Shown piece by piece: positions 2,198-18,610 of a stretch of 18,610 nucleotides of DNA. The notes beneath the pieces were generated by a model. It saw only the letters and a list, made by a program, of their open reading frames with translations. It was not told where the DNA came from and ran no database searches. This DNA is from Desulfobacterium sp. (GTDB lineage Bacteria; Desulfobacterota; Desulfobacteria; Desulfobacterales; Desulfobacteraceae), in NCBI GenBank assembly GCA_045046665.1, contig JASFYZ010000238.1, positions 1 through 18,610 on the forward strand. The letters are read 5' to 3'. The translations under genes were made by a program, and so were the position numbers. Position 1 is the stretch's first letter, and each line of letters opens with the position of its first letter.

Positions 2198-3130
2198 TTA
2201 TTTGGCTTCGGTAACCCTGATCACCGATTGTTCCCTCTTCAGCAAATGATTTGAGGCAAGCTCAAGAAAGACCTTTGAGGATTTGGAAAGCGCCAGGTCT
2301 GTCTGAAAAATAGCGTCTATGCCTATTTTTAATCTTTCATCAGTTAATGAGATAACTTTAAGGGTTTCATGACAAATTTCCCTCTCAACATTGGGATAAA
2401 ACATTAACGCAATACCTGAGCCCTGCTTGATAAGATTTTTCATACCTTCGATATTGTCGATTTCAGCAATAACAATAGGGTCTATTTTATACTTATAGAA
2501 TAGATCAAGTATTATTTTGCGACCCGTCATCCCTTCCCGGTGCACAATCAGGGAACATCCCTCCAGATCCTGCAAGGTCACCTTTTTCTTGTTTACCAGG
2601 GGATTTTCAGGACAGGTAATCAGCACCAGCTTTTTTTTTGCCGTCACTGGAACCACTGTGAGACCGTTGATCAATGGATCGACGGTACCCGTAAATCCAA
2701 GGTTACATCGAAAATCGAGTATCGCGGAAATGATCTCCTGATCGGTTCCTTCCTTAAGCGAAATTTTCACCTTGGGATACATTTTGCTGAATTTATCTAT
2801 CAGTAAGATAATATGCTGGGCCAGCGGGCTCGCCACACCAATTCGAAGATTGTTATTACTGCAATCCTGGAGAAAAATCTCTGCTCTGATAGCAGAATGA
2901 TAAAATGATTCTGCATATTTAAACAGCTTTTCCCCTGTTTTCGTTAAACACACTTTTTTCTTCTTTACATTAATTAATTTGATACCATAATACTTCTCCA
3001 GAGATTTGATCTGCATGCTCACTGCAGGTTGTGTCACACAAAGCTTTTCTGCAGCTGCACTGATAGTCCCTTCATTGGCTACGAAGTAAAAAGTAGTTAA
3101 CTGGTAAGGATTTATTTTAGGAGGAATCAT
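2198..3130 (-). CDS. LysR-family transcriptional regulator (310 aa)
   Basis: N-terminal winged-HTH: LTTFYFVANEGTISAAAEKLCVTQPAVSMQIKSLEKYYGIKL. The C-terminal ~200 aa has the length expected of a substrate-binding domain. Divergent from the downstream + strand cluster, which is the usual LTTR arrangement. Confidence 0.9.
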   Translation of the reverse strand: MIPPKINPYQLTTFYFVANEGTISAAAEKLCVTQPAVSMQIKSLEKYYGIKLINVKKKKVCLTKTGEKLFKYAESFYHSAIRAEIFLQDCSNNNLRIGVASPLAQHIILLIDKFSKMYPKVKISLKEGTDQEIISAILDFRCNLGFTGTVDPLINGLTVVPVTAKKKLVLITCPENPLVNKKKVTLQDLEGCSLIVHREGMTGRKIILDLFYKYKIDPIVIAEIDNIEGMKNLIKQGSGIALMFYPNVEREICHETLKVISLTDERLKIGIDAIFQTDLALSKSSKVFLELASNHLLKREQSVIRVTEAK

Positions 3131-3861: not shown

Positions 3862-5529
3862 ATGGTAAATTTACTATCTGGATGTATGCCTTACAATGCG
3901 GAAGACGTGAAAAAATACAACGACTTTCGGTGGTGGGCAGGATTGACATTCGGGGATGTTTTTGACCGGGCAGCAGACATCCATCCAGACAAAGAGGCCT
4001 TTGTAGACTCCAAAACCCGGCTGACTTTTGGTGAAGCCAGAGAAAAAACCAATCAACTTGCCATTGGCATGATGGACCTTGGCATTAAACCCCTGGACCG
4101 GGTTCTGGTGCAGCTACCCAATTGGAACGAATTTGTTTTTGCCTACTTTGCTCTTCAGAAAATTGGTGCCATAACGGTATTACTCATAGACAAATATCGC
4201 CAATACGAAATTAATCACCTGGCAAAATTAACCGGTGCCAGTGCATGGATTGTTCCTGTCCAGTACAAAAAAATTGATTACCGTCCGATCATTGATGATG
4301 TTCTCAAAGAGAACCCGGCATTACAAAAAGTAATTACCGTTCGAGGCGAAGTCAACAAGGATAAGGTTTCCAGTCTTGAACAGCTAATGGCAGGGGGAAA
4401 ATTAACGGATAAAAATCTGGCCCGCCTGGCAGAGCGCCGTCCCGATCCAATGCAGATCGCCCACATGGGCCCCACTGGCGGCACCACAGGTGCTCCCAAA
4501 GTAGTGCCCCGTTCCCACAACAGCCTGATCACGGGCATCACCTATTGTTCACGCTCCTGGGAGCAGAGCAATCTTGATATCAATCTCATCGCAGGCCCCA
4601 TCGGCCATGACCTTTCGTTCAGCAAAGGATTCATCGGCAGTGTTATCACCATGGGAAAAGTGGTTTTTTTGGATTCTCCCGACAATAAGAGTATCTGTGA
4701 GACCATAGAAAAAGAAAATGTAACCTCCATTATCTGGGTTCCCACCCTTGCACAGAGACTTCTTCAATACGAAGACCTTGATAACTATAATCTACACTCA
4801 CTGCAGAAAATGCACAGTGCTGGCGGTGCCAGCCACCCGGGATTGGTTAAAGAGGTGATAGAACGATTGAATTGTAAATTTTTCAACGGATACGGCGGCA
4901 CCGAGGGGCCCACCACCATCACCCGAATTAACAATGATATTGAAACCATTTGCGGGACAGTTGGCAGGCCTACCTGCCCCTATGACACATACAAAGTAGT
5001 GGATTTCGCAGGTAATACCCTGCCATGTGGTGAGCATGGGGAGCTGGTTCTCAAAGGACCGGGCGTGTTCACTGGATACTATGAGAATCCGGAAGAAGAC
5101 AAGTTGGTGCTGGATAAAGAGGGTTTTTTCAGAACCGGCGATCTGGCCAGAATCGATAAAAACGGTTACATTACCCTCACCGGCCGCATCAAAGAGATGA
5201 TCAACCGGGGCGGCGAAAGTATCAGCTCCACAGAAATTGAGAAACTGATCATGGTTCATCCCGAAGTTGCCATGGTGGCGGTCATTCCCATGCCGGACCC
5301 GGATATGGGCGAAAAGGCCTGCGCCTACATTCAGCCCATGAACGGCGCTACCCTGACATTTGACGGCATTATTTCATACCTCCGGAGCCAGGATGCATCT
5401 GTTTTACAGCTTCCGGAACGCATTGAGTTTGTCGAAAAAATGCCCTATACCGGTGCCGAAAAATTGGATAAAAAATCTCTTCGTGAAGATATTGAGCAAA
5501 AACTTAAGGCCGAAGGCGTGACCGTTTAA
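3862..5529 (+). CDS. AMP-forming aryl-acid CoA ligase / adenylating enzyme, EntE/DhbE-like clade (555 aa)
   Basis: RBS GAAGGAG lies upstream of ATG 3862. ANL-superfamily motifs present: TGGTTGAPKVVPRSH, NGYGGTEGP, FRTGDLA, NRGGESISSTEIE and a terminal KLDKK. Colinear by eye with E. coli EntE, for example GIKPLDRVLVQLPNWNEFVFAYFALQKIG vs [29 protein letters not shown], and MGEKACAY vs MGEKSCAY. No aryl-carrier protein lies nearby, so CoA is the likely acceptor. Confidence 0.9.
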   Translation: MVNLLSGCMPYNAEDVKKYNDFRWWAGLTFGDVFDRAADIHPDKEAFVDSKTRLTFGEAREKTNQLAIGMMDLGIKPLDRVLVQLPNWNEFVFAYFALQKIGAITVLLIDKYRQYEINHLAKLTGASAWIVPVQYKKIDYRPIIDDVLKENPALQKVITVRGEVNKDKVSSLEQLMAGGKLTDKNLARLAERRPDPMQIAHMGPTGGTTGAPKVVPRSHNSLITGITYCSRSWEQSNLDINLIAGPIGHDLSFSKGFIGSVITMGKVVFLDSPDNKSICETIEKENVTSIIWVPTLAQRLLQYEDLDNYNLHSLQKMHSAGGASHPGLVKEVIERLNCKFFNGYGGTEGPTTITRINNDIETICGTVGRPTCPYDTYKVVDFAGNTLPCGEHGELVLKGPGVFTGYYENPEEDKLVLDKEGFFRTGDLARIDKNGYITLTGRIKEMINRGGESISSTEIEKLIMVHPEVAMVAVIPMPDPDMGEKACAYIQPMNGATLTFDGIISYLRSQDASVLQLPERIEFVEKMPYTGAEKLDKKSLREDIEQKLKAEGVTV

Positions 5530-5633: not shown

Positions 5634-7133
5634 ATGAAACAAGAAAAAACATCCCCGGAAGTATTATTGGCTGAAGATATCACAGACCTTCGTTCTGCAG
5701 TGGCATTTCTGGCCACTCAGCCCGGTCAGCTATTGAGAACAAAGGAACCGGTGGATCCCCATGCTGAACTGGCCGGTGTCTACAAACTCATTGGTGCGGG
5801 CACCCCGGTGGCACCACCCACCACTACCGGGCCAGCCATGCTGTTTGAAAATATAAAGGGATATGATATTCCCGTTCTGGTGGGAGTTCTGGCCAGTCGG
5901 GAACGCGTTGCCATGCTGTTGAACACCACTCCTTCAGAACTGCCTCGAATGATACAAAAAGCCCTGAAAAATCCAGTGGCGGCCGTTACCATCCCCCAGG
6001 AGAAAGCCGCATGCCAGGAGGTGATTCATCGTGCCCCTCTGGATATTAGAAAACTCTTGCCAGCCCCCACCAATACCGAGTTCGATGCTGGTCCCTATTT
6101 CTGCATGGGACTGGTTCGTGCTGAAGATCCGGAAACCGGAGAGGCCAATGTCACCATCCATCGTCTTTGTGTTCAGGGCCCGGATAAGATAAGTATCTAT
6201 TTTGTCCCCGGCCGACACATTGATCAGTTCCGCATTAAGGCAGAAAAAATGGGCAAACCCCTGCCCATCACCATTAACATGGGGCTGGATCCAGCCGTTT
6301 ATATCGCCTCTTGTTTTGAACAACCCACGGCACCCCTGGGATACGATGAATTGCAGGTGGCCGGTGGTATTCGCAATCGACCAGTGGAACTGGTAGACTG
6401 TGTCAGCGTCAATGCCAAGGCCATTGCCAATGCAGAAATCGTCATTGAAGGCGAAATTCTGCCCAACGAACGCATCCGGGAAGATATCAACACCAATTCC
6501 GGAAATGCCATGCCAGAATTCCCGGGGTATATGGGTCCATCGAAACCCGAGGTGCCAGTTATCAAAGTCACCGCAGTGACCCATCGTATCAAACCGATTC
6601 TTCAAACCCTTGTGGGGCCCGGGGAAGAACATGTCAGCCTAGCCGGTCTGCCCACCGAAGCCAGTATTTTCAATCTGGTGGAAGACGCCATGCCAGGTCG
6701 CCTGATCAATGTCTATTGTCATCCCTCCGGCGGTGGCAAGTACCTTGCCATTCTTCAATTTAAAAAAGAGTCGCCAGTGCATGAAGGAATGCAGCGCCAG
6801 GCAGCATTAACGGCATTCGCCGCTTTTTCCGAATTGAAAAATGTTATTATTGTGGATGAAGACGTGGATCTGTTCAACACCAATGATGTGCTGTGGGCCA
6901 TGACCACCCGATACCAGGGAGATGTGAGTACGGTGTTCATTCCCGGCGTCAGGTGCCATCCCCTGGATCCTTCGCAGCAACCGGAGTTCAGCAGAACCAT
7001 CCCGTCGCCCGGAATCTCCTGTAAGACCATTTTTGATTGCACTGTGCCATTTTCCATGAAAAAAAGATTTGAGAGAGCGCCTTTTAAAGATGTTGATATC
7101 CAACGGTTTTTGGACAACAGCGAACTGTCATAA
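5634..7133 (+). CDS. UbiD-family prFMN-dependent (de)carboxylase (499 aa)
   Basis: RBS AGAGGAAG lies upstream of ATG 5634. Typical UbiD blocks: DLRSAVAFLATQPGQLLRTKEPVDPHAELAGV, MLFENIKGY, AGGIRNRPVELVDC, AEIVIEGEI and PEFPGYMG (the counterpart of EGPFGxxTGYY). Length and position next to ubiX also fit. Confidence 0.9.
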   Translation: MKQEKTSPEVLLAEDITDLRSAVAFLATQPGQLLRTKEPVDPHAELAGVYKLIGAGTPVAPPTTTGPAMLFENIKGYDIPVLVGVLASRERVAMLLNTTPSELPRMIQKALKNPVAAVTIPQEKAACQEVIHRAPLDIRKLLPAPTNTEFDAGPYFCMGLVRAEDPETGEANVTIHRLCVQGPDKISIYFVPGRHIDQFRIKAEKMGKPLPITINMGLDPAVYIASCFEQPTAPLGYDELQVAGGIRNRPVELVDCVSVNAKAIANAEIVIEGEILPNERIREDINTNSGNAMPEFPGYMGPSKPEVPVIKVTAVTHRIKPILQTLVGPGEEHVSLAGLPTEASIFNLVEDAMPGRLINVYCHPSGGGKYLAILQFKKESPVHEGMQRQAALTAFAAFSELKNVIIVDEDVDLFNTNDVLWAMTTRYQGDVSTVFIPGVRCHPLDPSQQPEFSRTIPSPGISCKTIFDCTVPFSMKKRFERAPFKDVDIQRFLDNSELS

Positions 7134-7411
7134 ATCGTATTTAACATAATAGTAGTAAAACTATCCATGAGCCTCTTACTAAATGACGTTTTTACGATCA
7201 GGAAAGCAGCAATTCCAGCAAATATGGTATGCGTCCCCAATGGTTCATTCATATGCTGAAACGGCAATTCAAATCGAACAAAACAGCTTTTAAAGGAACA
7301 GGCTCATTGATAGTCCACTCCATATATCGCCTTCCCCCGCGTTTTATCACGGAGGATGAACAATTGACGATTCAAACGCCTGGGGCGTATCCCCGGAAAA
7401 TAGGAGATAGA

Positions 7412-8005
7412 ATGCAAAAACGTATTGTTATAGGAATGTCTGGGGCAAGCGGGGTCATATACGGCATAAAATTATTAGAATATCTTCAGCCCATGGAGTA
7501 TGAAACCCACTTGATTCTATCTGAGGCAGCAAAACTCAATATTAAAATCGAAACCAGTTATACCCCCGATGAAGTGGCTGCCCTTGCCGATATATGCTAT
7601 GATCATAAAAACATCGCCGCCTCACCCGCAAGCGGTTCATTTCTCACCCAGGGAATGATTGTCGCTCCCTGTACCGTTAAAACACTTTCCGGCATTGCCA
7701 ATTCCTACACGGAAAACCTTTTGGTTCGAGCCGCCGATGTGACGTTAAAAGAGAAGCGAAAACTGGTGCTTCTTTTCCGGGAAACTCCCCTCCACAGAGG
7801 GCATTTAAGGCTTCTCACCATGGCATCGGAAATGGGCGCGCATATTCTTCCACCAGTGCCATCTTTTTATCATATGCCAAAAACCATTGATGATATCATT
7901 GACCAGAGCATAGGGAAAATTTTTGATTACATGGGCATTGAACATAATCTGTTCCAGCGATGGCATGGAGAATCCCGCCCCCATACCCGTCCCGTTGCTG
8001 TTTGA
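7412..8005 (+). CDS. ubiX: flavin prenyltransferase UbiX (197 aa)
   Basis: RBS GGAGA (7403-7407) precedes ATG 7412. Near-colinear with E. coli UbiX: RIVIGMSGASGVIYG, SGSF, PCTVKTLSGIANSY, LVRAADVTLKEKRKLVLLFRETPLH, HLRLL, LPPVPSFYH. The 61-codon upstream extension in the ORF track (from 7229) has no UbiX counterpart. Confidence 0.92.
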   Translation: MQKRIVIGMSGASGVIYGIKLLEYLQPMEYETHLILSEAAKLNIKIETSYTPDEVAALADICYDHKNIAASPASGSFLTQGMIVAPCTVKTLSGIANSYTENLLVRAADVTLKEKRKLVLLFRETPLHRGHLRLLTMASEMGAHILPPVPSFYHMPKTIDDIIDQSIGKIFDYMGIEHNLFQRWHGESRPHTRPVAV

Positions 8006-8022
8006 TTTCAAGGAGGTGCACC

Positions 8023-8580
8023 ATGAAGGACAAAGAAAGGGTTATTTTGGTCAATCATAAAGGCATTGCCCTCAGGGGGCCGGATGGTTCTTTAAGAACC
8101 CAGGAAAAATTTTTAGCCCATAAATGCGGCAATCGTCATCTGGCTGTTTCGGTATTTATTTTCAATTCCCAGGGGGAACTGCTTTTACAACAACGGGCCA
8201 TGGGAAAATATCATTCCTCGGGCCAATGGACCAACACCTGCTGCACCCATCCCCGGCCCGGTGAGCAGCCTCAAAAAACCGCTGAAAGAAGACTTGATGA
8301 AGAGATGGGCATAACCTGCTCCTTGGAACCTGCCTTTACCTTTGGCTATCGTGCAGATGTGGGCAACGGACTCATTGAAGATGAATTTGATCATGTCTTT
8401 ATGGGAAAAAGTGACGTACCCCCCATCCCTAACCCTCGGGAAGCGTGTGGCTGGAAATGGATGTCACTGACCCGATTAGCAAAGGAGATAAGAACGGTTC
8501 CTCATGCCTACAGTCCCTGGCTGCGCATCTGCCTTAACACCGTCGTCAACCACAGAACCCAATGCCTGTCACAAACATAG
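8023..8580 (+). CDS. idi: isopentenyl-diphosphate delta-isomerase, type 1 (Nudix fold, 185 aa)
   Basis: RBS AGGAGG (8011-8016) precedes ATG 8023. Colinear with E. coli Idi: [21 protein letters not shown] vs [30 protein letters not shown] vs WTNSVCGHP (catalytic Cys); IEDEFDHVF vs VENEVCPVF (catalytic and metal Glu); SPW near the C-terminus. Confidence 0.85.
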   Translation: [185 protein letters not shown]

Positions 8581-8640
8581 GTCCCAGGCCGTACCCATCG
8601 CCCGTCGGGGGCGGCATGGTTACATTTTCTATCTTCGTTA

Positions 8641-8658
8641 TGACAGGTTGCCCTGTCA
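8641..8658 (+). other. small hairpin in the idi / PNPOx-like spacer
   Basis: TGACAGG-ttgc-CCTGTCA forms a 7-bp stem with a 4-nt loop. The following TGCGGGTTTATATC is only weakly U-rich, so its function is unclear. Confidence 0.25.
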
Positions 8659-8697
8659 TGCGGGTTTATATCGGTATATTCTTGGGAGGGGGCAGAC

Positions 8698-9171
8698 TTG
8701 CTTGAAAAACATGACTGGATGGTCAACATTGAAAAAATGATCATTTCCCAAAAGGTAATGACCCTTGCCGTTATCTGGCAGGCAGAGGCATGGTCATCCC
8801 CGGTCTATTATCTTTATTGGAGAAAGGCGTTCTATTTTTTTTCCAGCACGGATTCCCGCCATATAAAGGGAAGTCAACAGACGGATGGCAGGGCAGGGGG
8901 TTCCATTTTTGTGAATGCACTTTCCTTTGATGAAATTCAAGGGATTCAAATGCAAGGATGCATTGAACCGGCAAAAAAAGACAGGGAAGGCCTTGCCGCA
9001 GCAGTGGCCTATCTCAAACGATTTGGCATCTACCATGGCAAGGTAAACGCTATGACATTTATTAAAAAGCAGTACCGGGCATCCTTTTATCGGTTTCTTC
9101 CCCATGATCTCATTTATATGGATAATCGGGTGGCCATGGGATTTAAAAAAGAACTGGAGATTTCCCGTTAG
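8698..9171 (+). CDS. YhbP/UPF0306-like protein, pyridoxamine-5'-phosphate-oxidase-like (FMN-binding split-barrel) family (157 aa from TTG 8698; alternative ATG 8719)
   Basis: By-eye alignment to E. coli YhbP: QKVMTLAV..W.SPVYYLY..KAFYFFSSTDSRH vs QHVVTWCV..WCANAFYLF..VAFYILTEEKTRH; IQGIQMQGCI vs IRGVQFKGEI; YMDNRVAMGFKKE vs FTDNTLGFGKKM. GGGAGGGGG lies 5 nt upstream of TTG 8698. Confidence 0.65.
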   Translation: MLEKHDWMVNIEKMIISQKVMTLAVIWQAEAWSSPVYYLYWRKAFYFFSSTDSRHIKGSQQTDGRAGGSIFVNALSFDEIQGIQMQGCIEPAKKDREGLAAAVAYLKRFGIYHGKVNAMTFIKKQYRASFYRFLPHDLIYMDNRVAMGFKKELEISR

Positions 9172-9178
9172 TCAGTGA

Positions 9179-9197
9179 CCTCCGGCAAAGCCGGAGG
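9179..9197. terminator. GC-rich hairpin between convergent genes (possible bidirectional terminator)
   Basis: CCTCCGGC-aaa-GCCGGAGG is a perfect 8-bp stem with a 3-nt loop. It starts 8 nt after the stop at 9169-9171 and lies ~50 nt beyond the minus-strand ORF stop. There is no strong U-tract on either side. Confidence 0.4.
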
Positions 9198-9246
9198 CTT
9201 GCATTGTGAACCGCTCAAAGCGGTCAAAAAACCATGCAAGGCAGAT

Positions 9247-9429
9247 TCATGCCATGACCGGCTCGTCCACCATGAACTCCTTAATTTGCCAGCTGACGCC
9301 CCGACGATTGTTTGCCGTTTGGATATATTCTTCCGCCGCGTCCTTTTCCGTAAAGATCTTATCAAGATGTCCATTTCCACATGCCCCGCATTGCATGGGA
9401 TCAAATCTCATCACAACAAAAACACTCAT
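9247..9429 (-). CDS. small hypothetical protein (60 aa)
   Basis: The minus-strand ORF has AAGGA 8 nt upstream of the second ATG (9429). Codon choice and charge mix look protein-like (MSVFVVMRFDPMQCGACGNGHLDKIFTEKDAAEEYIQ...). The overlapping + strand ORFs are S/R-rich and start inside the hairpin. No family recognised. Confidence 0.4.
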   Translation of the reverse strand: MSVFVVMRFDPMQCGACGNGHLDKIFTEKDAAEEYIQTANNRRGVSWQIKEFMVDEPVMA

Positions 9430-9548
9430 TTCAATCATCCTTTTTATTAATGATTATTCCGACAAAATAATCGATATGCTTGCCACCACAATATAGTGCC
9501 GGATAACAATATCTGGCTTGTTCACAAAATCGGCCACCATCAGCCAAA

Positions 9549-9800: not shown

Positions 9801-11270
9801 ATGTCAGAAAATGCCAATGGCTTTAATATCTTAATGTACTGGCTGTGCAGTTTTGACAATATTCTATGGGAAAAAATCTCCTCCGGTGATTTGGACAAAT
9901 CCCAGTGGGCCATCACCATAACCGACGAAGATGTCAACTTTCTTTATGCCAATGAAGCCTTTTGCCAATTGATTGGCCATCCACGGGACACCCTTCTTTC
10001 CATGAAAGCATTTGATGTGCTCCCCGATGAAACTTTTCATCGTTTTAAAAATCACATCACCAACTTCATTGAAATAAAATCCAAATTCCGTTGCGATGTT
10101 GTCGAACTTGATTATATTCAGGAAAACGGCAGATCTGCCACCGTTGAAGAGATCATCCGGTTGGTGACCCACAACGGAAAACATTATATTTTCAGTCTCA
10201 TCTATCTTCCCGACCAGAGGGACAACAAAGACAACGCTCTGGTGAGTTATCTAAACAGCCTTGAAACAGAATTCATCCGGCTCAAGGATGAAAATATAGT
10301 TCTCAAGCAGGAACTTGTTTTGAAGGACACCTATGGGACAGTAATTGGAAAGAGTAAAAATTTCAGACGGGTTCTTAAGGCGGTGGAACAAGTGGCCCCC
10401 ATGGATACCACCGTGCTGATCCTGGGCGAAACAGGAACAGGAAAAGAACTGCTCGCCCGTTCCATCCACGGGTTAAGCCGTCGAAAGGATCTTCCCCTTA
10501 TAAAGGTCAACTGTGCTGCCCTTCCTGCCGGATTAATGGAAGCGGAACTCTTTGGTCATGTCAAAGGCGCTTTCACAGGTGCCATTCAGAATCGTAAGGG
10601 GCGGTTTGAACTGGCAGACAAGGGAACCCTTTTTCTGGATGAAATCGGCGAACTGCCCATGGAATTCCAGACAAAACTGCTCCGGGTGCTCCAGGAAGGA
10701 GAACTCAACCGGGTGGGAGACGGGAAAAACATCACCGTTGATGTCAGGATCATCGCCGCAACCAATCGTGATCTTGAAAAAGAGGTGAAAAAGGGCCGTT
10801 TCCGGGAAGATCTTTTTTATCGACTCAATGTTTTCCCCATCACAAGTCCCCCATTGAGGAAGCGAAGGGAAGATATCCCCTCCTTGATCCGATATTTTCT
10901 TGAGCATTATAATCGGAAGCTTGGCAAACACGTGGATATCATTCCAAGAGCCACCTTGAATCAACTGCTCTCCTACCACTGGCCGGGAAATATCCGGGAG
11001 CTGGAAAATATTCTGGAGCGGGCCATCATCCTTGCAAAGGACCAGGTGCTTTCCCTGGAAGGTCTCAGTAAAAAAAAGCATGAACCAGTGGTTGAAAAAA
11101 CAAATCCCACCCTTGAAGAGGTCCAACGAAACTACATCCTGAAGATTCTCCATCAAACCGGGTGGCGCGTCAGCGGCGAAAACGGTGCTGCCAATATTCT
11201 GGGGCTGAACCCCAAGACCCTGGAGTCCCGCATGAAAAAACTTTCCATCCATCGTCCCACACATTCCTGA
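9801..11270 (+). CDS. sigma-54-dependent transcriptional activator (PAS sensor + AAA+ + Fis-type HTH, 489 aa)
   Basis: RBS AAGGA precedes ATG 9801. Walker A is [15 protein letters not shown]. The sigma-54 contact loop is [15 protein letters not shown] (GAFTGA motif). Also present: [31 protein letters not shown], and a C-terminal HTH ([21 protein letters not shown]). The N-terminal ~170 aa is PAS-like ([29 protein letters not shown]). Confidence 0.92.
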
Positions 11271-11419
11271 AAAACCATCCCCATATTTAAGCTCTTTCCT
11301 TAAATATAAGGATATACTCTCAAAAATTATTTTCATTTTTTTCCTATTTCACCATTGATGAATATTTTTTTGTTTTATTTTAAGTGAGTTAAATAGGATA
11401 TCGTTTATATTTCCCTCCC

Positions 11420-11436
11420 TGGAACAAAAACTGCAT
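11420..11436 (+). promoter_or_regulatory. candidate sigma-54 promoter, TGGAAC-N5-CTGCAT
   Basis: GG (11421-22) and GC (11433-34) have the exact 10-nt spacing, and both TGG and TGC are present. This is the best -24/-12 match in the window. It sits just downstream of the sigma-54 activator gene and ~285 nt upstream of the aminotransferase start, with an AT-rich tract upstream. Confidence 0.45.
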
Positions 11437-11636
11437 CTCTATCAATACATCAAAAAAGAAAACCGGCATTTACCGGTGTTGTGATCAAACCCAATGGGTC
11501 TGCTGGGTAACGACTGTAGAGTCAACACAAAAATCAGGCTTATGCATACAACAATGTATTACCCCAAATCAGTGACCCTAAAATCAAGTAATGACAAAGC
11601 ACTATCCATCATCCGCAATATTGTACTTTAGTAGTA

Positions 11637-11664
11637 TTGACATATTAAATCAGTCTAATATCAT
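11637..11664 (+). promoter_or_regulatory. candidate sigma-70-type promoter, TTGACA-N16-TATCAT
   Basis: Perfect -35 hexamer (11637-11642), a 16-nt spacer and a -10-like TATCAT (11659-11664), ~58 nt upstream of ATG 11722. Pattern match only. Confidence 0.25.
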
Positions 11665-11721
11665 TCATCGGCAACGGCTTTGATGCGGCAAGTCAGTATC
11701 ACCTTTGCCAAAGGAGACCCC

Positions 11722-13131
11722 ATGACCAACGACAAAAGAGAGCAGGCACTTGAAGCATTAAGTTTCCCGGAAGCCCCTAAACTTGTCACCGACACCATCC
11801 CAGGTCCTAAGGCCGGAAAAATTTTCCAGGAGATGATGGCCCTGGAAACTCCCCAGAGGCCCGCGGCCACCGTATTTCCCCTGGTGGCGGAAGAGGCAAA
11901 AGGGGTAACCATCAAGGATGTGGACGGCAATATTTTTATTGATTTTGGTGCTGGCGTCGGTGTAAAGAGCACCGGTAGCTGCCACCCCAAAGTGGTAAAA
12001 GCCATCCAGGAACAGGCCCCGAAAATGGGCCACATGATTGATGCGTTGACCCCCCTTAAATATGAAGTGGTAAAAATCATGCGGGACACGGCTCCCCATG
12101 ATCTGAAAAACAACTGCTTCATGACCTATTTCCAGAGTGGTACGGGCGGGGCCGAGGCCTGTATAAAACAGAGCAAAATGATCACCGGCAGAAACCAGAT
12201 CGTGGCCTTTGAGGGGGGATACCATGGTGTTTTCGGACATACCAATGCCATGACCGTGGGTGAGACCTATCGCCAGGGATACGGCGCATTGATGCCCTAT
12301 GTGCATCATCTTCCCTATGCATATTGTTATCGCTGCCCCTTTAACATGGAATATCCAAAATGCGGTGTGGAGTGTGCCAAATATGCGGATTACAAGCTCA
12401 ATACCCCTTATACCGGCCTTGATGATGTGGCTGCAGTGATCTGCGAATCCTTCCAGGGAGAGGGCGGTTATATAGTTCCCCCCAAAGAGTGGTGGCCCAT
12501 GATCAAAAAAGCTGCAGAGAAAGCAGGGGCCATGTGCATCGCAGACGAAGTACAATCAGGGTTTGGCCGCAGCGGCAAAATGTGGGCATGCGAACATTAT
12601 GACTTTAACCCCGATATGATCACCTTTGGCAAAGGTGTGGGCAATGATCAGCCCTTTGCCGGCGTCATGACCCACTCCAAATATATTGATAAGCTGACCC
12701 TACAGTCTCAGCCAAACACCTTCTCCGGCAACTCAATCACACTGGCTGCTGTCAAAGCCAATTATGAAATCATGCTGGATCCAGAAATGGATCTCATGGG
12801 TCGCGCCACCGAGCTTGGCGAATACATGCAGTCACGATTTAAAGAAGCCCAGAAAAGCATTGAACAAATTGGGGATATCCGGGGCCAAGGGCTGTGGCAG
12901 GCCATTGAACTGGTGAAAGACCCTGATACCAAGGAACCCACCCGCCCCGAATTCCTGGGAGACCTTTTCCCGGCCCTTTTTGCCAAGGGATTGTTCTCTG
13001 TTCCCTGTGGCCGCCATGCCAATGTATTACGATTTATGCCATCATTAACCATCTCCAAGAAACACCTGGACATATCCCTTGATATCCTTTTTGAGACCCT
13101 TGAAGAGTTAAAGGATAAAATGACGCAATAA
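11722..13131 (+). CDS. class-III (omega-/GABA-type) PLP-dependent aminotransferase (469 aa)
   Basis: RBS AAGGAGA precedes ATG 11722. Family blocks: GAGVGVKSTGSCHPKVV, SGTGGAEACIK, FEGGYHG, DEVQSGFGRSGKMWA, and the PLP-lysine block DMITFGKGVGN. The 14-codon TTG extension from 11680 is not needed. Confidence 0.9.
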   Translation: MTNDKREQALEALSFPEAPKLVTDTIPGPKAGKIFQEMMALETPQRPAATVFPLVAEEAKGVTIKDVDGNIFIDFGAGVGVKSTGSCHPKVVKAIQEQAPKMGHMIDALTPLKYEVVKIMRDTAPHDLKNNCFMTYFQSGTGGAEACIKQSKMITGRNQIVAFEGGYHGVFGHTNAMTVGETYRQGYGALMPYVHHLPYAYCYRCPFNMEYPKCGVECAKYADYKLNTPYTGLDDVAAVICESFQGEGGYIVPPKEWWPMIKKAAEKAGAMCIADEVQSGFGRSGKMWACEHYDFNPDMITFGKGVGNDQPFAGVMTHSKYIDKLTLQSQPNTFSGNSITLAAVKANYEIMLDPEMDLMGRATELGEYMQSRFKEAQKSIEQIGDIRGQGLWQAIELVKDPDTKEPTRPEFLGDLFPALFAKGLFSVPCGRHANVLRFMPSLTISKKHLDISLDILFETLEELKDKMTQ

Positions 13132-13199
13132 TTTAAGGCGCATATTGAAGTTCAGAGTCTTTTGCATATTTCATTGTGCATCGGGGGTCAGGCTTGTGC

Positions 13200-13292
13200 T
13201 AAGTACCCGAACAAATGTTCTTCGTGATCAAATCCAAGTATATCAACGGTATATGCTTATAGAATACTGAAAAACATATGTGTGGGTACTTA
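13200..13292. repeat. 20-bp imperfect inverted repeat with a 53-nt centre, in the aminotransferase / AOR spacer
   Basis: TAAGTACCCGAACAAATGTT (13200-13219) pairs with AACATATGTGTGGGTACTTA (13273-13292): 17 Watson-Crick pairs, 1 G-T pair and 2 mismatches. Confidence 0.45.
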
Positions 13293-13424
13293 TTATGCTG
13301 TTATCAGTGATAAACCCGCTGAAACAAATACCAACAAAAAGCGTAATAATGCAAGCCGGACCACCCTGAAATCCACACAAGCCTATTTCTGAATCAGTTC
13401 AATATTATATAAAGGTGATTTTTT

Positions 13425-15137
13425 ATGGACAAAATTCTAAGAATCAACATGAACAAGAAAAGCGCTCAATTTGAATCAGTGCCGGAACCAATGATCCTGT
13501 TTGGGGGGCGGGGCACCGTGGCAGCCATTCTGTCAAATGAAGTGGACCCCACCTGTGATGCCCTGGGGCCGGACAACAAGTTGATCATCTGTCCTGGAAT
13601 GATGACAGACACCTCAGCCCCCTGTTCAGGGCGCATCTCCATTGGCGGTAAAAGCCCCTTGACCGGCACCATCAAAGAGGCCAATGCCGGTGGTATGGCC
13701 GCCAAAAAACTGGCTGCCCTAAATATTTATGCCATTGTTGTGGAAGGTCTGCCTTCAAAGGATGAAAAATGGTCCCTGTTAATGCTGGATGATTCCGGTG
13801 CGAAACTGGTTTCTGCATCAAAATACATGGGCATGGACAACTATGACCTGGTGGCGCAACTGCGAGTAGATTTCGGCGATGATATCGCCACCATTTCCAT
13901 TGGCCAGGCCGGAGAACGGGGATATCTCAACTCCACGGTACAGATGTCCGATCCCGAGGGCCGCCCGGCCAGAGCCGCAGCAAGGGGCGGACTTGGAGCG
14001 CTCATGGGTTCCAAAGGCCTCAAGGCCGTTGTCATTTCCACGGCTCAAAAGCTTAACGCACCTTATCAGGATAAGGAAGCATTTCGAACAAACAGCAAGG
14101 CCTACAGCAAGGCCATCATGGACAATCCTATTTCAGGCCAGGGATTGCCCGCCCTGGGAACAGCGGTCTTGGTCAACGCCACCAATGCCCAGGGTTGCCT
14201 GCCCACCAACAATTTTCAGAAAGGGCGTTTTGAGCAGGCCGAAGCCATCAGTGGAGAACACATTGCAGCATTGCAGGGGGATCGCAAGGGCAAGATGACC
14301 CACAGATGTTCCCCCGGATGTGTTATCCAATGTTCCGGTGTGTACCATGGGCCTGACGGTAAATATCTCACTTCAGGGTTTGAATATGAGACCATTGGAC
14401 TCATGGGTGCCAACTGCGGCATCGACGATATTGACAGCGTGGCCCTGATGGATAAAATGTGCGATGATCTGGGTATTGACACCATGGAAACAGGGGTCTC
14501 CATTGGGGTATGTATGGAAGCTGGCAAATTAAATTTCGGAGATGCCAAAGGTGCCATTGCCCTGGTTCAGGAGATGAAGGATGACACCGAGTTCGGGAAA
14601 ATTCTCGGCCAGGGAACGCTGGCAGTTGGAACCCACTTAGGTGTAGAACGTATTCCTGTTGTAAAAGGGCAATCTCTGGCTGCCTATGACCCAAGAGGTC
14701 TCAAGGGAACGGGGGTAACCTATGCCACCTCCCCCATGGGCGCCGATCACACTGCGGGGAATTCCCTGGGCGATCCCTCCGTGGACCCGGCGAGAAAAAA
14801 AGGTCAGGTGGCTCTTTCCACCCAACTCCAGGTGGGCATGTGCCTGTTTGACAATCTTGGCATGTGTATTTTTTCAGGGTTCTGCCTTGCCGCTCCTGAA
14901 AATCTCCAGTTGCTGGTAAACATGGTTGCGGCCAAGTTCGGCGGCCAATGGGATGTGGACCGGCTCATGGGCATTTCGGTTCAGACCCTTGCCATGGAAA
15001 AGGCCTTTAACAAAAAGGCGGGGTTCACCGCAAAAGACGATAAACTGCCTGATTTCTTCTATGTGGAAACATTGGATTCTGTGGACACTGTGTTTGATAT
15101 TACCTCAGAAGAGCTGGAACAGGCAATTCCCTTTTAA
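13425..15137 (+). CDS. aor: tungsten/molybdopterin aldehyde:ferredoxin oxidoreductase family protein (570 aa)
   Basis: RBS AAAGGTGA precedes ATG 13425. The N-terminal AOR domain (ILRINMN...FGGRGTVAAIL...GKSPLTG) is colinear with Pyrococcus AOR (ILRVNLT...IGGRGLAAWIL...AKSPLTG). The [4Fe-4S] motif is CSPGCVIQC (CxxCxxxC) with a later Cys in MCLFDNLGMC. Pterin-binding blocks are DDLGIDTMETG and SPMGADHTAGN. Confidence 0.9.
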   Translation: MDKILRINMNKKSAQFESVPEPMILFGGRGTVAAILSNEVDPTCDALGPDNKLIICPGMMTDTSAPCSGRISIGGKSPLTGTIKEANAGGMAAKKLAALNIYAIVVEGLPSKDEKWSLLMLDDSGAKLVSASKYMGMDNYDLVAQLRVDFGDDIATISIGQAGERGYLNSTVQMSDPEGRPARAAARGGLGALMGSKGLKAVVISTAQKLNAPYQDKEAFRTNSKAYSKAIMDNPISGQGLPALGTAVLVNATNAQGCLPTNNFQKGRFEQAEAISGEHIAALQGDRKGKMTHRCSPGCVIQCSGVYHGPDGKYLTSGFEYETIGLMGANCGIDDIDSVALMDKMCDDLGIDTMETGVSIGVCMEAGKLNFGDAKGAIALVQEMKDDTEFGKILGQGTLAVGTHLGVERIPVVKGQSLAAYDPRGLKGTGVTYATSPMGADHTAGNSLGDPSVDPARKKGQVALSTQLQVGMCLFDNLGMCIFSGFCLAAPENLQLLVNMVAAKFGGQWDVDRLMGISVQTLAMEKAFNKKAGFTAKDDKLPDFFYVETLDSVDTVFDITSEELEQAIPF

Positions 15138-15151
15138 TCCAGACCCTATTC

Positions 15152-15196
15152 ACCCGTTTCCAGACACTGATTCATTCGTCGCAAATGGAAACGGGT
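15152..15196 (+). terminator. 11-bp perfect stem hairpin 15 nt after the AOR stop
   Basis: ACCCGTTTCCA (15152-15162) pairs with TGGAAACGGGT (15186-15196) around a 23-nt loop. The trailing AAAGATATCGATTTT is not a canonical U-tract. Confidence 0.4.
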
Positions 15197-15435
15197 AAAG
15201 ATATCGATTTTGGGAGTTTCTGGCTTGCATAGATTGGGATTAATAAGGCCCGACTTGACCCGTCTCCCAAAAATAAACTCCAGAACCGTATCCTCGAGAA
15301 TCGGTTCCATGCCATTGTTGGTGTAAATCTGAAAGCATGGTATAAGCAGTGAATATTTTTCGCAGGGGAATGCCCCAGAAATCACCTTCATACCTTAACC
15401 TTTGTTTTTCAAAAACACTATAAAAAGGAAAAACT

Positions 15436-16497
15436 ATGAAAAGATCCCATTGGTCAGTTACAACACTGTTATTAACGATAAGTGTTATTGCCTTTTTAAT
15501 TGCAGGTCCGCAAATTCAAAATGTAGATGCCGGTGATAAAGTGTATCGGATGAAAATCCAATCCCTGTTTCCCCACGGTGATACCTCCATGGAGACATTG
15601 AAAGTATTTTCCGAATCCGCTGCAAAACGAAGCAACGGCCAATTGAAAATAAAGGTCTTTGCCGAGCCTGAAATCATGCCCGGAGATCAACTGTTTGGTG
15701 GCACCAGGCAGGGGGTTGTGGACATGCTCCATGGCATGGGCGGCATGTGGGGCGGTATGGTTCCCATAGGGTATGTTGAATTTAACCTGCCCATGGCTTT
15801 CCGCATTGATGAGGAGAGCACCTGGGAGGGCAAGGCCCAGGCAATACGTGATTTCTATTTTAAAAAAGGCTTTGTCGAACTTCTTCGAAAAGAGTATGCC
15901 AAAAAAGGGCTCTATTTTCTTGATATTCATACCTATGGTCCTGTGCCCTTTGTGCTCTCCACCAAACCCGCCACATCCTGTGCTGATTTTCAGGGATGGA
16001 AAATCAAGGCAGACGGTGGCAATATGGCCTACCACACCGCTGTTGGTATGCAGGCGACTGCAATATCTCCCACGGAAACCTATATGGGATTAAAATTGGG
16101 TACTGTGGATGCCGCTGAATGGGATGTAAGTGCCGTCACCGGTTTAAAATGGCATGAAGTAGCCCCTTACTGGATTCGCGGCATGGAGTGTGACCATACC
16201 ATAGGGCATATCCTCGTGAACTTAAAAAAATGGAATAAACTGCCGGATAACTTAAAAGAGGCACTTGGAGCAGCAGCTAAAGACTATTGGCACGCAACGG
16301 TGGATGCCTATAAAAAAGAGATGGAAGCGGTTAAAGGGCTTGTTAAAGAGGGAAAAGTCATCGAAAACGTTCTTGATGCCGACTGCCAGGAGCAGTACAG
16401 AAAGGCAGCTTACAAGATCTGGGATGAACTTGCCACCCAGGACGAAGCCTGTGCAGAGGCCATCAGAATGATCAAAAAATGGAGAGGCGTGAATTAA
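15436..16497 (+). CDS. TRAP transporter solute-binding protein, DctP family (353 aa, signal peptide)
   Basis: RBS AAGGAAA precedes ATG 15436. The N-terminal signal-like segment MKRSHWSVTTLLLTISVIAFLIAG ends at ..NVDA. Colinear by eye with H. influenzae SiaP: ADFQGWKIKA vs ADMKGLKLRV, and ETYMGLKLGTVDAAEWD vs EVYLALQTNAVDGQENP. Confidence 0.9.
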   Translation: MKRSHWSVTTLLLTISVIAFLIAGPQIQNVDAGDKVYRMKIQSLFPHGDTSMETLKVFSESAAKRSNGQLKIKVFAEPEIMPGDQLFGGTRQGVVDMLHGMGGMWGGMVPIGYVEFNLPMAFRIDEESTWEGKAQAIRDFYFKKGFVELLRKEYAKKGLYFLDIHTYGPVPFVLSTKPATSCADFQGWKIKADGGNMAYHTAVGMQATAISPTETYMGLKLGTVDAAEWDVSAVTGLKWHEVAPYWIRGMECDHTIGHILVNLKKWNKLPDNLKEALGAAAKDYWHATVDAYKKEMEAVKGLVKEGKVIENVLDADCQEQYRKAAYKIWDELATQDEACAEAIRMIKKWRGVN

Positions 16498-16615
16498 TGC
16501 CTGGGGAGTTGGCTATTTTCATTGGGGTACTGAGTAATTCAAGGCTCCTGTAACAATATAACAAGGCGGTGCAGCCCCAAGGGTGATTGCACCGCCATTT
16601 AATGGAAATGACCTA

Positions 16616-17089
16616 ATGAATACTTTTTCTGATGGCATCAAACGCCTCATTGAAACAGTTGGCAAGGTTGGCAGTTTTTTAATCCTCCTAATAATGGCCA
16701 TTATCACTTTTGAGGTAATTTCACGCTATGCCTTCAACGCCCCTACCTCGTGGGCATGGTTGATCAACAAGCAGCTGTTTGGAGTTTTTGCCCTGATTGC
16801 AGGAGGGTATACGTTGATTCATAAAAGCCATATCCGCATTGAAATGCTGTACGAGCACTACCCCCCTGTCATGAAGACCTTTGTTCGATGGCTCACCCTT
16901 ATCATCGCCCTTTTTTTTCTGGGCACGCTGCTGTGGAAAAGCAGTGTCATGGGAATCGATGCCTGGCAGATGAAAGAAAAGGCCATGGGAGTGTTTAAAT
17001 TGCCTCTCTATCCGCTCAAAATGTTCATGCCCATTGGCACCGCTCTGTTCATACTGGCTTGTATTGCAGTGTATGGCCCTAAGAAATAA
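16616..17089 (+). CDS. TRAP transporter small permease, DctQ family (157 aa; alternative GTG start at 16583)
   Basis: About 4 hydrophobic spans, and the size and position between the P and M components are typical of DctQ. The start codon is uncertain because the SD for ATG 16616 is weak. Confidence 0.8.
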   Translation: MNTFSDGIKRLIETVGKVGSFLILLIMAIITFEVISRYAFNAPTSWAWLINKQLFGVFALIAGGYTLIHKSHIRIEMLYEHYPPVMKTFVRWLTLIIALFFLGTLLWKSSVMGIDAWQMKEKAMGVFKLPLYPLKMFMPIGTALFILACIAVYGPKK

Positions 17090-17106
17090 ACGATGATGCT
17101 CATCGT
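17090..17106 (+). other. short hairpin immediately after the DctQ stop
   Basis: ACGATGA-tgc-TCATCGT forms a 7-bp stem with a 3-nt loop. No U-tract follows. Confidence 0.2.
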
Positions 17107-17308
17107 CAATCATTGGCCATGTAAATTTTAAAGAAACTTTCGGTATTCTTTGTTGTGGGCAGAGTGGCATAAAATCCGGTCCGCCCGTGGCGATTTATAA
17201 GAAAATGCAGCACCGGAGCGCCCACAGCAGAGCCCGGTGGTGGCAGAACACTATTTTCATCATTATGTTGTGTCCGCCAGGACATGACCGTTATAGGAAT
17301 TATTATCA

Positions 17309-18610
17309 ATGAGTATTGAACTGATTACCTTAGTTTTATTCGGCGGTCTGCTGTTGTTGCTTGCCCTTGGTATTCCCGTCACCTTTGCATTGGGTGGCAT
17401 CACCGTTCTGATGACCTATATAGTTGATGGGCCGGATGGGGTCTACACCGTTGCCACCACCACTTACCAGCAAATAACCAGTCCCACATTAATGACCATA
17501 CCGCTGTTTCTAATCATGGGCAATTTTCTGGTACAGTCCGGTATTTCAGAACGAATGTACAACGGCTTGAGTTACTGGTTGTCCGGTATTCGCGGAGGTC
17601 TTGCCATCGTCTCCATTGGTGTATGCGTCTCCCTTGCCATGTGTGGCGGCTTCGGCCCCGGCATTTTGACCATGGGGCTGGTGGCGGTCCCGGCCATGCT
17701 AAAACACAACTACAGTAAATCCATTGCATTGGGTTCCGTCATGGCCGGAGGCGTACTGGGTGAAATAATCCCCCCTGCTATCATCATGATTATTTTCGCC
17801 TTCATCGCCCGCATCTCCATTGGCAAACTCTTTTTTGGCGGTATGATACCTGGACTTATACTGGCACTGCTCTACGTTGCTTACATCGTTTTTGTCGGCA
17901 TTATCCGCCCAAATGATCTGCCTAAAATAACAATAGATGTCACTTGGGGCATGCGCTGGAAAGCCCTTGGTGAAATTTTCCTTCCATGCATGCTTGTGTT
18001 GCTGGTACTGGGCTCCATCTTTCTTGGCGTGACCACCCCCACGGAAGCTGCCGGGGTGGGGGCACTTGGAGCCATAGTCATCTGTGCCGTCCACCGCAGA
18101 CTGACTTTCCAGGTTATCACCGATTCCTGCTCCGAGACCCTTAAAATAACCGGTATGGTTCTGTGGATACTTATTCCAGCCACATTATTCGGCGTATTTT
18201 ATGGCAGTGCCGGAGCCCAAGATATGATCATGGAACTTATCCAGTCCCTGGAAGTCAACCGCTGGATTGTGCTCATCTGCATGCAATTTATACTGCTGAT
18301 TTTTGGCATGTTCATGGATGATTATGCGGTGGTAACCATCTGTGCTCCCATCATGATGCCCATTGCAAGGCTACTTGGCTTTGATCCCATATGGTTCTCC
18401 ATTTTGTTTATCTTAAACATGCAGGTGGCCTATTTAACGCCTCCCTTTGGATGGGCGCTGATAATGATGAAAGGGGTCGCCCCCATGGGTATTACCACAA
18501 GGGACATCTGGAAGGCAGTTCCTCCCTTTGTCATGATTCAGGTGGCGGTGCTCCTGCTGGTAATGATTTTTCCACAAATCGCTACTTGGCTTCCCAATGC
18601 AATATTCTAA
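17309..18610 (+). CDS. TRAP transporter large permease, DctM family (433 aa); its stop codon is the last triplet of the window
   Basis: Polytopic hydrophobic protein with a typical DctM N-terminus (LLLLLALGIPVTFALGG). It follows the P and Q genes. An in-frame TAG at 17294-17296 rules out an N-terminal extension. Confidence 0.9.
   Translation: MSIELITLVLFGGLLLLLALGIPVTFALGGITVLMTYIVDGPDGVYTVATTTYQQITSPTLMTIPLFLIMGNFLVQSGISERMYNGLSYWLSGIRGGLAIVSIGVCVSLAMCGGFGPGILTMGLVAVPAMLKHNYSKSIALGSVMAGGVLGEIIPPAIIMIIFAFIARISIGKLFFGGMIPGLILALLYVAYIVFVGIIRPNDLPKITIDVTWGMRWKALGEIFLPCMLVLLVLGSIFLGVTTPTEAAGVGALGAIVICAVHRRLTFQVITDSCSETLKITGMVLWILIPATLFGVFYGSAGAQDMIMELIQSLEVNRWIVLICMQFILLIFGMFMDDYAVVTICAPIMMPIARLLGFDPIWFSILFILNMQVAYLTPPFGWALIMMKGVAPMGITTRDIWKAVPPFVMIQVAVLLLVMIFPQIATWLPNAIF

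Follow-up and report, generated by a model that had tools for sequence, protein, structure and literature searches.

Enzymes of the UbiD family catalyze the hard (de)carboxylations of anaerobic aromatic and polycyclic aromatic hydrocarbon degradation and are wanted as CO2-fixing biocatalysts. Many of them cannot be obtained in an active form, since their cofactor, prenylated flavin mononucleotide (prFMN), must be both delivered and oxidized correctly; in vitro, the oxidant is O2. So far, helper proteins for prFMN (LpdD and PhdC/YclD) are known from lactobacilli, actinomycetes and bacilli. Here we examine a different protein family, encoded in a Desulfobacterium sp. metagenome-assembled genome (MAG). 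The window analyzed is a stretch of 18,610 nucleotides that makes up nearly all of an 18,950-bp contig of this MAG. Five of its plus-strand genes encode, in order, an aryl-CoA ligase, an AroY-type UbiD, the flavin prenyltransferase UbiX, a type-1 isopentenyl-diphosphate isomerase (IDI) and a YhbP-like split-barrel protein. Genomic context in several independent settings ties the YhbP-like protein strongly to UbiD enzymes. By analogy, the best reading is that it would be a functional counterpart of LpdD or PhdC/YclD.

LpdD is a prFMNH2-binding chaperone that aids UbiD activation and has no catalytic role in maturation (PMC10865409). Like the YhbP-like protein, it is the product of an accessory gene between or beside ubiD and ubiX. 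The two differ in build: LpdD (PAC_bac, PF21758) has an unrelated, proteasome-assembly-chaperone-like fold with a His-His-Asp Mn site. Neither PF21758 nor LpdD was detected in the window; the YhbP-like protein has no Pfam match, and a tblastn search with the LpdD-like protein of locus L032, the closest orthologous operon (UbiD 72% identical), was negative. In L032 an LpdD-like PAC_bac gene (11498-11905) lies between ubiD and ubiX. The UbiD-ubiX spacer of the window (7134-7411) is unusually long at 278 nt and has no recognizable gene inside it; with the same query, we saw no similarity there that would indicate a decayed lpdD-like gene. LpdD-like and YhbP-like genes never occurred together in the loci sampled (the numbers are small), and this mutual exclusion is what non-orthologous replacement would give. 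Further LpdD-like genes stand beside ubiD or ubiX in L070 (9169-9531), L084 (11277-11585) and L090 (4643-4933).

PhdC from Mycolicibacterium fortuitum and YclD from Priestia megaterium are prFMN maturases. They oxidize the radical form of the cofactor to its iminium form and raise the activity of E. coli UbiD roughly 9- to 10-fold; PhdC belongs, distantly, to the HpaC-like flavin reductases, and its authors describe the physiological prFMN oxidant of strict anaerobes as unknown (PMC13040415). These proteins share with the YhbP-like protein a length of ~150 aa, a beta-barrel fold of the flavin-binding type and a gene encoded with UbiD and UbiX (phdA-phdB-phdC), an order that the operons of the window and of locus L027 mimic. 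However, PhdC is HpaC-like whilst the window protein is PNPOx/YhbP-like, with no detectable sequence similarity between them, and the PhdC structures (9SRG/9SRJ) are absent among the 50 Foldseek matches listed for the YhbP-like model. PhdC-like sequences are reported only in Actinomycetota, whereas most of the YhbP-like family comes from Desulfobacteraceae that are strict anaerobes.

A maturase or chaperone role for the third protein had been raised in the initial annotation of the window. The idea of a helper for the UbiD cofactor is already known and so not new in kind, given LpdD (PMC10865409) and PhdC/YclD (PMC13040415); what would be new is the YhbP-like family in that role, its distribution in strict anaerobes and the addition of idi. 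We found no description in the literature of a PNPOx/YhbP-like UbiD accessory protein or of a ubiX-idi unit.

Genomic context of the YhbP-like family

The YhbP-like protein of the window (8698-9171, plus strand; 157 aa, QM498_09030) is read from a TTG start with GGGAGG ahead of it. A word-indexed search gave 28 relatives, and a full search by hidden Markov model (HMM) gave 1513 representatives with E ≤ 0.001, of which 56 reach E ≤ 1e-30. In 16 of the 19 informative GTDB species loci, the YhbP-like gene lies directly upstream of a gene for a 610-aa UbiD (UbiD610), the pair being found in Desulfobacterium MAGs, Desulfocicer vacuolatum DSM 3385, Desulfamplus and Desulfotignum. It is also ahead of this UbiD in every metagenome locus looked up for a relative at least 34% identical, and the pairing was seen down to 35% identity. 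In seven loci the two called genes abut or share 4 nt, and in two they are separated by ~130 nt. They belong to a conserved housekeeping synteny of arginase, DEAD helicase, MurJ, a small open reading frame (ORF), an M48/TPR protease, the YhbP-like protein and UbiD610. The pairing persists in L014-L016, where the M48 protease gave no tblastn match, and is therefore a pairing with UbiD and not with the protease. UbiD610 is closest to the menaquinone-type decarboxylase TIGR03701 (337 bits, under the cut-off) and bears ~150 aa extra at its C-terminus. The synteny was seen in L001 (10001-12298) and also in L002, L004-L022, L024, L025, L028, L108 and L111.

The family is found, too, next to UbiD subfamilies unrelated to UbiD610. 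L027, from a Desulfovibrionaceae MAG, has genes for UbiD, UbiX and a YhbP-like protein in that order, with the homologue placed by tblastn at 7042-7485, inside the ORF matched by the HMM. In L065, L071 and L072, a YhbP-like gene together with LysR and metallophosphoesterase genes is divergent from a phenylphosphate-carboxylase-type cluster (phenylphosphate-synthase-like genes, a ppc-beta-like UbiD at 505 bits against a cut-off of 469, and a CoA ligase); UbiX is seen in these clusters only where the contig reaches it (L065). Plasmid pAZKH of Azoarcus sp. KH32C carries a PNPOx-family member (L114, NC_020548.1 128511-128975; 73 bits to the family HMM) right after a sigma-54 regulator and divergent from a pps-ppcB-ppcD-ppcA phenol cluster. 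The connection between the PNPOx-like protein and UbiD, first proposed from the window alone, is thus borne out by the GTDB pairs, L027, the phenylphosphate-type clusters and the Azoarcus plasmid. For N47 and NaphS2, a PNPOx-family gene to which no function was assigned is listed in naphthalene-carboxylase clusters that are rich in UbiD (PMC6849830); it may be a further member of the present family.

In most genomes the PNPOx-like gene partners ubiD, not ubiX or idi, and in >20 loci it is next to ubiD with ubiX absent within 10 kb. These loci bear on a second possibility, that the protein acts at UbiX as a flavin reductase or carrier supplying FMNH2. Flavin reductases do occur among split-barrel proteins, PhdC itself being HpaC-like (PMC13040415); in the window, the gene shares its half of the operon with ubiX and idi, and in L027 it follows UbiX. 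Nevertheless, with so many ubiD-adjacent copies away from ubiX, and with reduced FMN a reagent that should not limit a strict anaerobe, we regard a role on the UbiX side as very unlikely.

Some further features of these loci were recorded. Azoarcus sp. KH32C is a cultured, genetically accessible host of a family member. A calcineurin-like (YfcE-like) metallophosphoesterase gene adjoins the YhbP-like gene in L065 (4960-5667, minus strand) and L071 (5016-5675, minus strand; 3 nt apart), and the enzyme of L065, L071 and L072 is a candidate that could act as a phosphatase turning dimethylallyl diphosphate (DMAPP) into the monophosphate (DMAP). E. coli K-12 yhbP (L110, NC_000913.3 3299472-3303367), annotated as putative FMN-binding, is two genes from ubiT-ubiU-ubiV. 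The ubiTUV genes encode an O2-independent ubiquinone hydroxylation system, and the same pathway requires UbiD/UbiX. Three tandem UbiD paralogues occur in L073, L075, L076, L079, L083 and L085, with UbiX in all except L083, and these metagenome loci are reminiscent of clusters for multi-subunit carboxylases of aromatic compounds. An ORF with a generic PNPOx domain is found in L075 as well, ~2.5 kb from the closest UbiD paralogue (17467-18588).

Fold and predicted flavin site

The window protein gave no Pfam match at E ≤ 0.01 (PF01243 and PF12900 included); among its relatives, P0014, P0024, P0025, P0164 and the copies in L065 and L023 match PF01243. Its AlphaFold2 model, built from a 22-sequence alignment, has a mean predicted local distance difference test (pLDDT) score of 92.3 and a predicted template-modelling (pTM) score of 0.86. 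Foldseek returned 130 PDB matches to the model at E ≤ 0.001, with PNPOx-like FMN-binding split-barrel proteins (1rfe, 2arz, 2hti, 2hq9, HugZ) at probability 1.0. The split beta-barrel PNPOx fold therefore holds in the model, and a fold outside the PNPOx-like group, the outcome that would have told against the initial annotation, was not found.

Membership of the YhbP family proper is another matter. The resemblance to E. coli YhbP takes in the split-barrel fold and a T/S-x-R-H motif, and the family HMM matches E. coli YhbP at 46 bits (E 2e-16). However, E. coli yhbP adjoins neither ubiD nor ubiX, and on the YhbP equivalog model (UPF0306; NF002900) the window protein reaches 45.1 bits (E 8e-12) against a cut-off of 176, with only residues 4-112 aligned. 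By sequence, it is a subfamily related to, but distinct from, the YhbP equivalogs, so that of the description 'PNPOx/YhbP-like' the fold was upheld and the equivalog membership was not.

Three invariant residues (S49, R54 and H55) and a near-invariant one (S53) are placed at the N-terminal end of the helix that separates strands 4 and 5. The same location binds the flavin phosphate in split-barrel flavoproteins, PhdC included (PMC13040415), and S-x-R-H is the predicted flavin-phosphate site of the YhbP-like protein. E. coli YhbP and the majority of 150 distant representatives conserve the R-H pair. In P0156 and P0159 the YhbP-like domain is fused to a domain (PF01982) of CTP-dependent riboflavin kinase, an FMN-making enzyme. 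A different fusion, to a 2-thiouracil desulfurase domain, occurs in P0087.

The UbiD neighbours of the family come from at least four unrelated subfamilies, with 23-33% identity between them, which argues for a generic role at the level of the cofactor over an enzyme-specific subunit. The contrary view would be that the YhbP-like protein is a UbiD partner outside cofactor handling, either a structural or regulatory subunit or a redox-protective partner of the holoenzyme. Small extra subunits do occur in UbiD systems, such as the D/gamma/delta subunits of VdcCD or phenylphosphate carboxylase; ppcD is annotated on the Azoarcus plasmid, and the tight translational coupling of the YhbP-like gene is to ubiD610 rather than to ubiX. 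Against the breadth of UbiD partners, and with flavin binding indicated alike by the fold, by the conservation of the phosphate site and by the fusions to riboflavin kinase, we think such a subunit improbable, although less so than a function at UbiX.

Origin of the window copy

The same MAG encodes a second YhbP-like paralogue, QM498_15095 (P0299), which is 79% identical to the window copy. Its housekeeping placement was read from a cluster-mate, P0003 (at least 90% identical), which lies in the M48/YhbP-like/UbiD610 context. The window copy is 85% identical to another protein from a housekeeping context and is most likely a recent, recruited duplicate of the housekeeping gene. UbiD610 and the window UbiD are 23-25% identical. 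A helper duplicated onto an unrelated UbiD most simply acts on a feature that UbiDs have in common, the cofactor. Recruitment would have served to co-express the helper with the catabolic UbiD, the source gene being the one translationally coupled to UbiD610 in Desulfobacteraceae.

UbiX, IDI and the prenyl donor

The window UbiX (7412-8005, plus strand; 197 aa) has an ATG start with AGGAGA ahead of it and is full-length, scoring above curated cut-offs on NF004685 (253.5 bits; cut-off 188) and TIGR00421 (237.4 bits; cut-off 108.9). A longer ATG-initiated ORF (7229-8005) would append 61 non-homologous residues and is probably unused. The initial annotation had started from a DMAP-dependent UbiX, with Nudix hydrolysis of DMAPP as one proposed route to DMAP. 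This premise is too narrow, as the UbiX enzymes of A. niger and E. coli K-12 require DMAPP (PMC6541611). In alignments to 6qlg and 1sbz, Gln165 of the window UbiX, within the motif IDQSIG, aligns with Q203 of A. niger UbiX (AnUbiX), H164 of O157 UbiX and F181 of PaUbiX. Q203 contacts the beta-phosphate of DMAPP and F181 blocks the beta-phosphate site; DMAPP use is correlated with the residue found here, which does not by itself fix the donor (PMC6541611). Because the window UbiX has the DMAPP-type Gln165, it may take DMAPP directly, in which case the product of IDI may be its direct substrate and Nudix hydrolysis need not be invoked.

The idi gene (8023-8580, plus strand; 185 aa), which has an ATG start with AAGGAGG ahead, lies 17 nt past ubiX. 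Its product is above the equivalog cut-offs of NF002995 (149.1 bits; cut-off 127) and TIGR02150 (109.0 bits; cut-off 105.8) and is 35% identical to the E. coli IDI structures 1hzt and 1nfs (E 7e-23). All 13 of the E. coli catalytic and ligand residues are kept (K21, H25, H32, R51, K55, C67, H69, R83, E87, Y104, E114, E116 and W161), amongst them the four that bind diphosphate (K21, R51, K55 and R83). By every sequence test the protein is an ordinary type-1 isomerase with that predicted activity, in agreement with its first description as a type-1 IDI with intact Cys/Glu/His blocks. The alternative offered at the same time, that the IDI-like protein yields DMAP as a DMAPP hydrolase, finds no such backing; in a variant of it, the protein would form DMAP as an isomerase of isopentenyl and dimethylallyl monophosphates. 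Such readings could appeal to the Nudix fold of the protein and to NudB, F, I and J of E. coli, which hydrolyze DMAPP to DMAP (PMC12359138). However, the isomerase catalytic residues and all four diphosphate-binding residues are intact, the IDI cut-off is exceeded whilst every Nudix hydrolase model scores <32 bits, and UbiX may have no need of DMAP. We consider DMAP formation by this protein highly improbable, the least probable of the alternatives weighed here.

The likeness to E. coli Idi thus extends to all metal, catalytic and diphosphate-binding residues. The setting is different: the window idi is inside a ubiX operon and not among isoprenoid or carotenoid genes. In E. coli, the routes to DMAP are NudB/F/I/J acting on DMAPP and ThiM phosphorylating prenol (Wang et al. 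2018, as cited in PMC12359138). Those routes would meet the same need, a C5 prenyl donor for UbiX, but they depend on unlinked housekeeping genes, whereas the window has an operon-encoded isomerase that would form DMAPP.

Whether idi has anything to do with prFMN is less clear from its relatives, which are at most 61% identical among 5.8 billion proteins, the named ones coming from Chloroflexota, Bacteroidota and archaea. Orthologous ubiX-idi operons sought through IDI did not emerge; the sole contig with context, holding the nearest such relative (60% identity), has the order MarR-patatin-IDI-MarR with no adjoining ubiX. The gene could then be a passenger, a horizontally acquired general isoprenoid gene that came to lie behind ubiX with no role in prFMN supply. 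Its residues are all those of an ordinary IPP (isopentenyl diphosphate) isomerase, and the other ubiX loci screened are without an adjoining idi. On the other side, it stands 17 nt behind ubiX within the operon, with its own strong ribosome-binding site, and DMAPP is a direct substrate or precursor for the UbiX reaction (PMC6541611). Moreover, a second IDI gene is head-to-head with the YhbP-like gene of L065, in another UbiD/UbiX cluster. Its product is only 32% identical to the window IDI, which suggests that the two were probably recruited independently. The spacing inside the operon and the recurrence in L065 favour a real link between idi and ubiX, and we hold the passenger explanation to be somewhat unlikely.

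Conservation of the three-gene arrangement

A metagenome scan with the window UbiD gave 78 loci, which were screened by tblastn and HMMs for the YhbP-like family and for IDI. The 33 AroY-type orthologous loci amongst them (56-72% identity) include 18 with at least 2.5 kb downstream; ubiX is present in two of these 18, idi and YhbP-like genes in none. Similarly, idi adjoins ubiX in none of the 17 other ubiX-bearing loci. The arrangement of ubiX, idi and the PNPOx-like gene is therefore not a conserved unit, an outcome that the initial annotation had named as telling against its proposal. Of its proposal of a dedicated prFMN module, the protein identities, the link of the PNPOx-like protein to UbiD and the recurrence of IDI in L065 stand; the conservation of the three-gene arrangement does not.

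The operon and its possible pathway

The coordinates and spacings of the trio hold as first annotated: ubiX is followed by idi after 17 nt and by the third ORF after 117 nt, all co-directional with the UbiD gene at 5634-7133. The region 7412-9171 is the distal half of what looks like a five-gene catabolic operon with a strong hairpin at its end. Two GC-rich hairpins (9175-9226, plus strand) come right past the stop codon of the YhbP-like gene (minimum free energy -26.7 kcal/mol, z -4.9), and because of them the five genes look like one unit. None of 200 shuffled sequences folds as well, no U-tract follows, and the hairpins probably mark where the operon transcript ends. The 278-nt UbiD-ubiX gap and the 117-nt gap between idi and the YhbP-like gene (8581-8697, plus strand) leave space for internal promoters. 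The shorter spacer has a weak promoter-like site at 8653-8680 (9/12 matches) and a weak hairpin, terminator-like, at 8652-8664, and folds no better than shuffled sequence (z -1.3).

Catabolic genes make up the proximal part of the operon. The first (3862-5529, plus strand) encodes an aryl-acid CoA ligase of the AMP-binding family (PF00501 at 235.6 bits, and PF13193), whose top NCBIfam matches are 2,3-dihydroxybenzoate-AMP ligase-like and all below cut-off. The second (5634-7133, plus strand) encodes a UbiD (de)carboxylase with UbiD_N, UbiD and UbiD_C domains that matches the 3,4-dihydroxybenzoate decarboxylase structures 5o3n, 5ny5 and 5o3m at E 1e-197 and ~660 bits. A phthalate-type operon, with a CoA ligase and a phthaloyl-CoA decarboxylase, was considered and ruled out, since the match to phthaloyl-CoA decarboxylase is ~150 bits against ~660 bits to AroY. 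By these similarities the window UbiD is of AroY type, protocatechuate decarboxylase-like and not phthaloyl-CoA decarboxylase-like. The combination of a CoA ligase and an AroY-type enzyme would suit the anaerobic conversion of catechol via protocatechuate to protocatechuyl-CoA, which Gorny and Schink reportedly described in 1994 in Desulfobacterium strain Cat2.

A proposed role in cofactor supply and activation

In the scheme that we propose, IDI would turn IPP into DMAPP, enlarging the pool of prenyl donor upon induction of an abundant catabolic UbiD. UbiX would then link the dimethylallyl group to FMNH2, perhaps straight from DMAPP, to give prFMNH2. The YhbP-like protein, holding the flavin phosphate at S-x-R-H, would take prFMNH2 or the prFMN radical, and either hand the cofactor to UbiD or help to oxidize it to the active iminium. 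Such a role would correspond to that of LpdD or of PhdC/YclD, here in a strict anaerobe. That the protein is a prFMN carrier or maturase for UbiD, with the trio as a set for cofactor supply and activation, has in our estimation about an even chance of being correct.

Several observations weigh against the scheme. The trio is confined to the window contig among everything searched, the linkage of IDI is confined to two loci and may be coincidence, and the argument from Gln165 for DMAPP use is weak. The YhbP-like gene may have its own promoter in the 117-nt spacer. Members of the family without UbiD nearby are found in Heliorestis (L023), L026, P0100 and E. coli (yhbP). Searched against the PDB sequences, solved flavin-binding proteins included, the family profile gave nothing significant. 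The PhdC signature, Glu47 and a C-terminal E-x-W, is absent from the window protein, the YhbP-like proteins having neither the C-terminal motif nor an invariant Glu.

Surroundings of the operon

Divergent from the operon is a gene for a LysR-type regulator (2198-3130, minus strand; Pfam HTH_1 and LysR_substrate), which is a candidate regulator only; LysR genes hold the same position in L065 and L071. Just 3' of the operon hairpins, on the opposite strand, is a 63-aa ORF (9247-9438, minus strand). Positions 9801-18610 hold a separate second module that begins with a PAS/sigma-54 activator and continues with a class-III aminotransferase (11680-13131), an aldehyde:ferredoxin oxidoreductase (13425-15137) and a TRAP transporter (DctP at 15436-16497, a probable DctQ at 16583-17089 and DctM from 17309). 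It looks like a catabolic unit that takes an amine via an aldehyde to an acid.

Implications

The YhbP-like proteins are a third, unrelated candidate helper family, conserved beside UbiD in strictly anaerobic sulfate reducers, and as such a concrete candidate for anaerobic prFMN activation. Together with idi, they are possible co-expression parts for obtaining active anaerobic UbiD carboxylases. A bolder reading, which we put forward tentatively and consider unlikely as a whole, is that the UbiDs of anaerobes rely on YhbP-like proteins, either as the hitherto missing prFMN maturases that work without oxygen or as obligatory prFMN carriers, with idi or the metallophosphoesterase completing a self-contained supply module. 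If this were true, the quinone-type housekeeping UbiD of Desulfobacteraceae would share one kind of helper with the catabolic carboxylases of catechol, phenol and naphthalene and, by extension, E. coli YhbP would play the same part in anaerobic ubiquinone synthesis.

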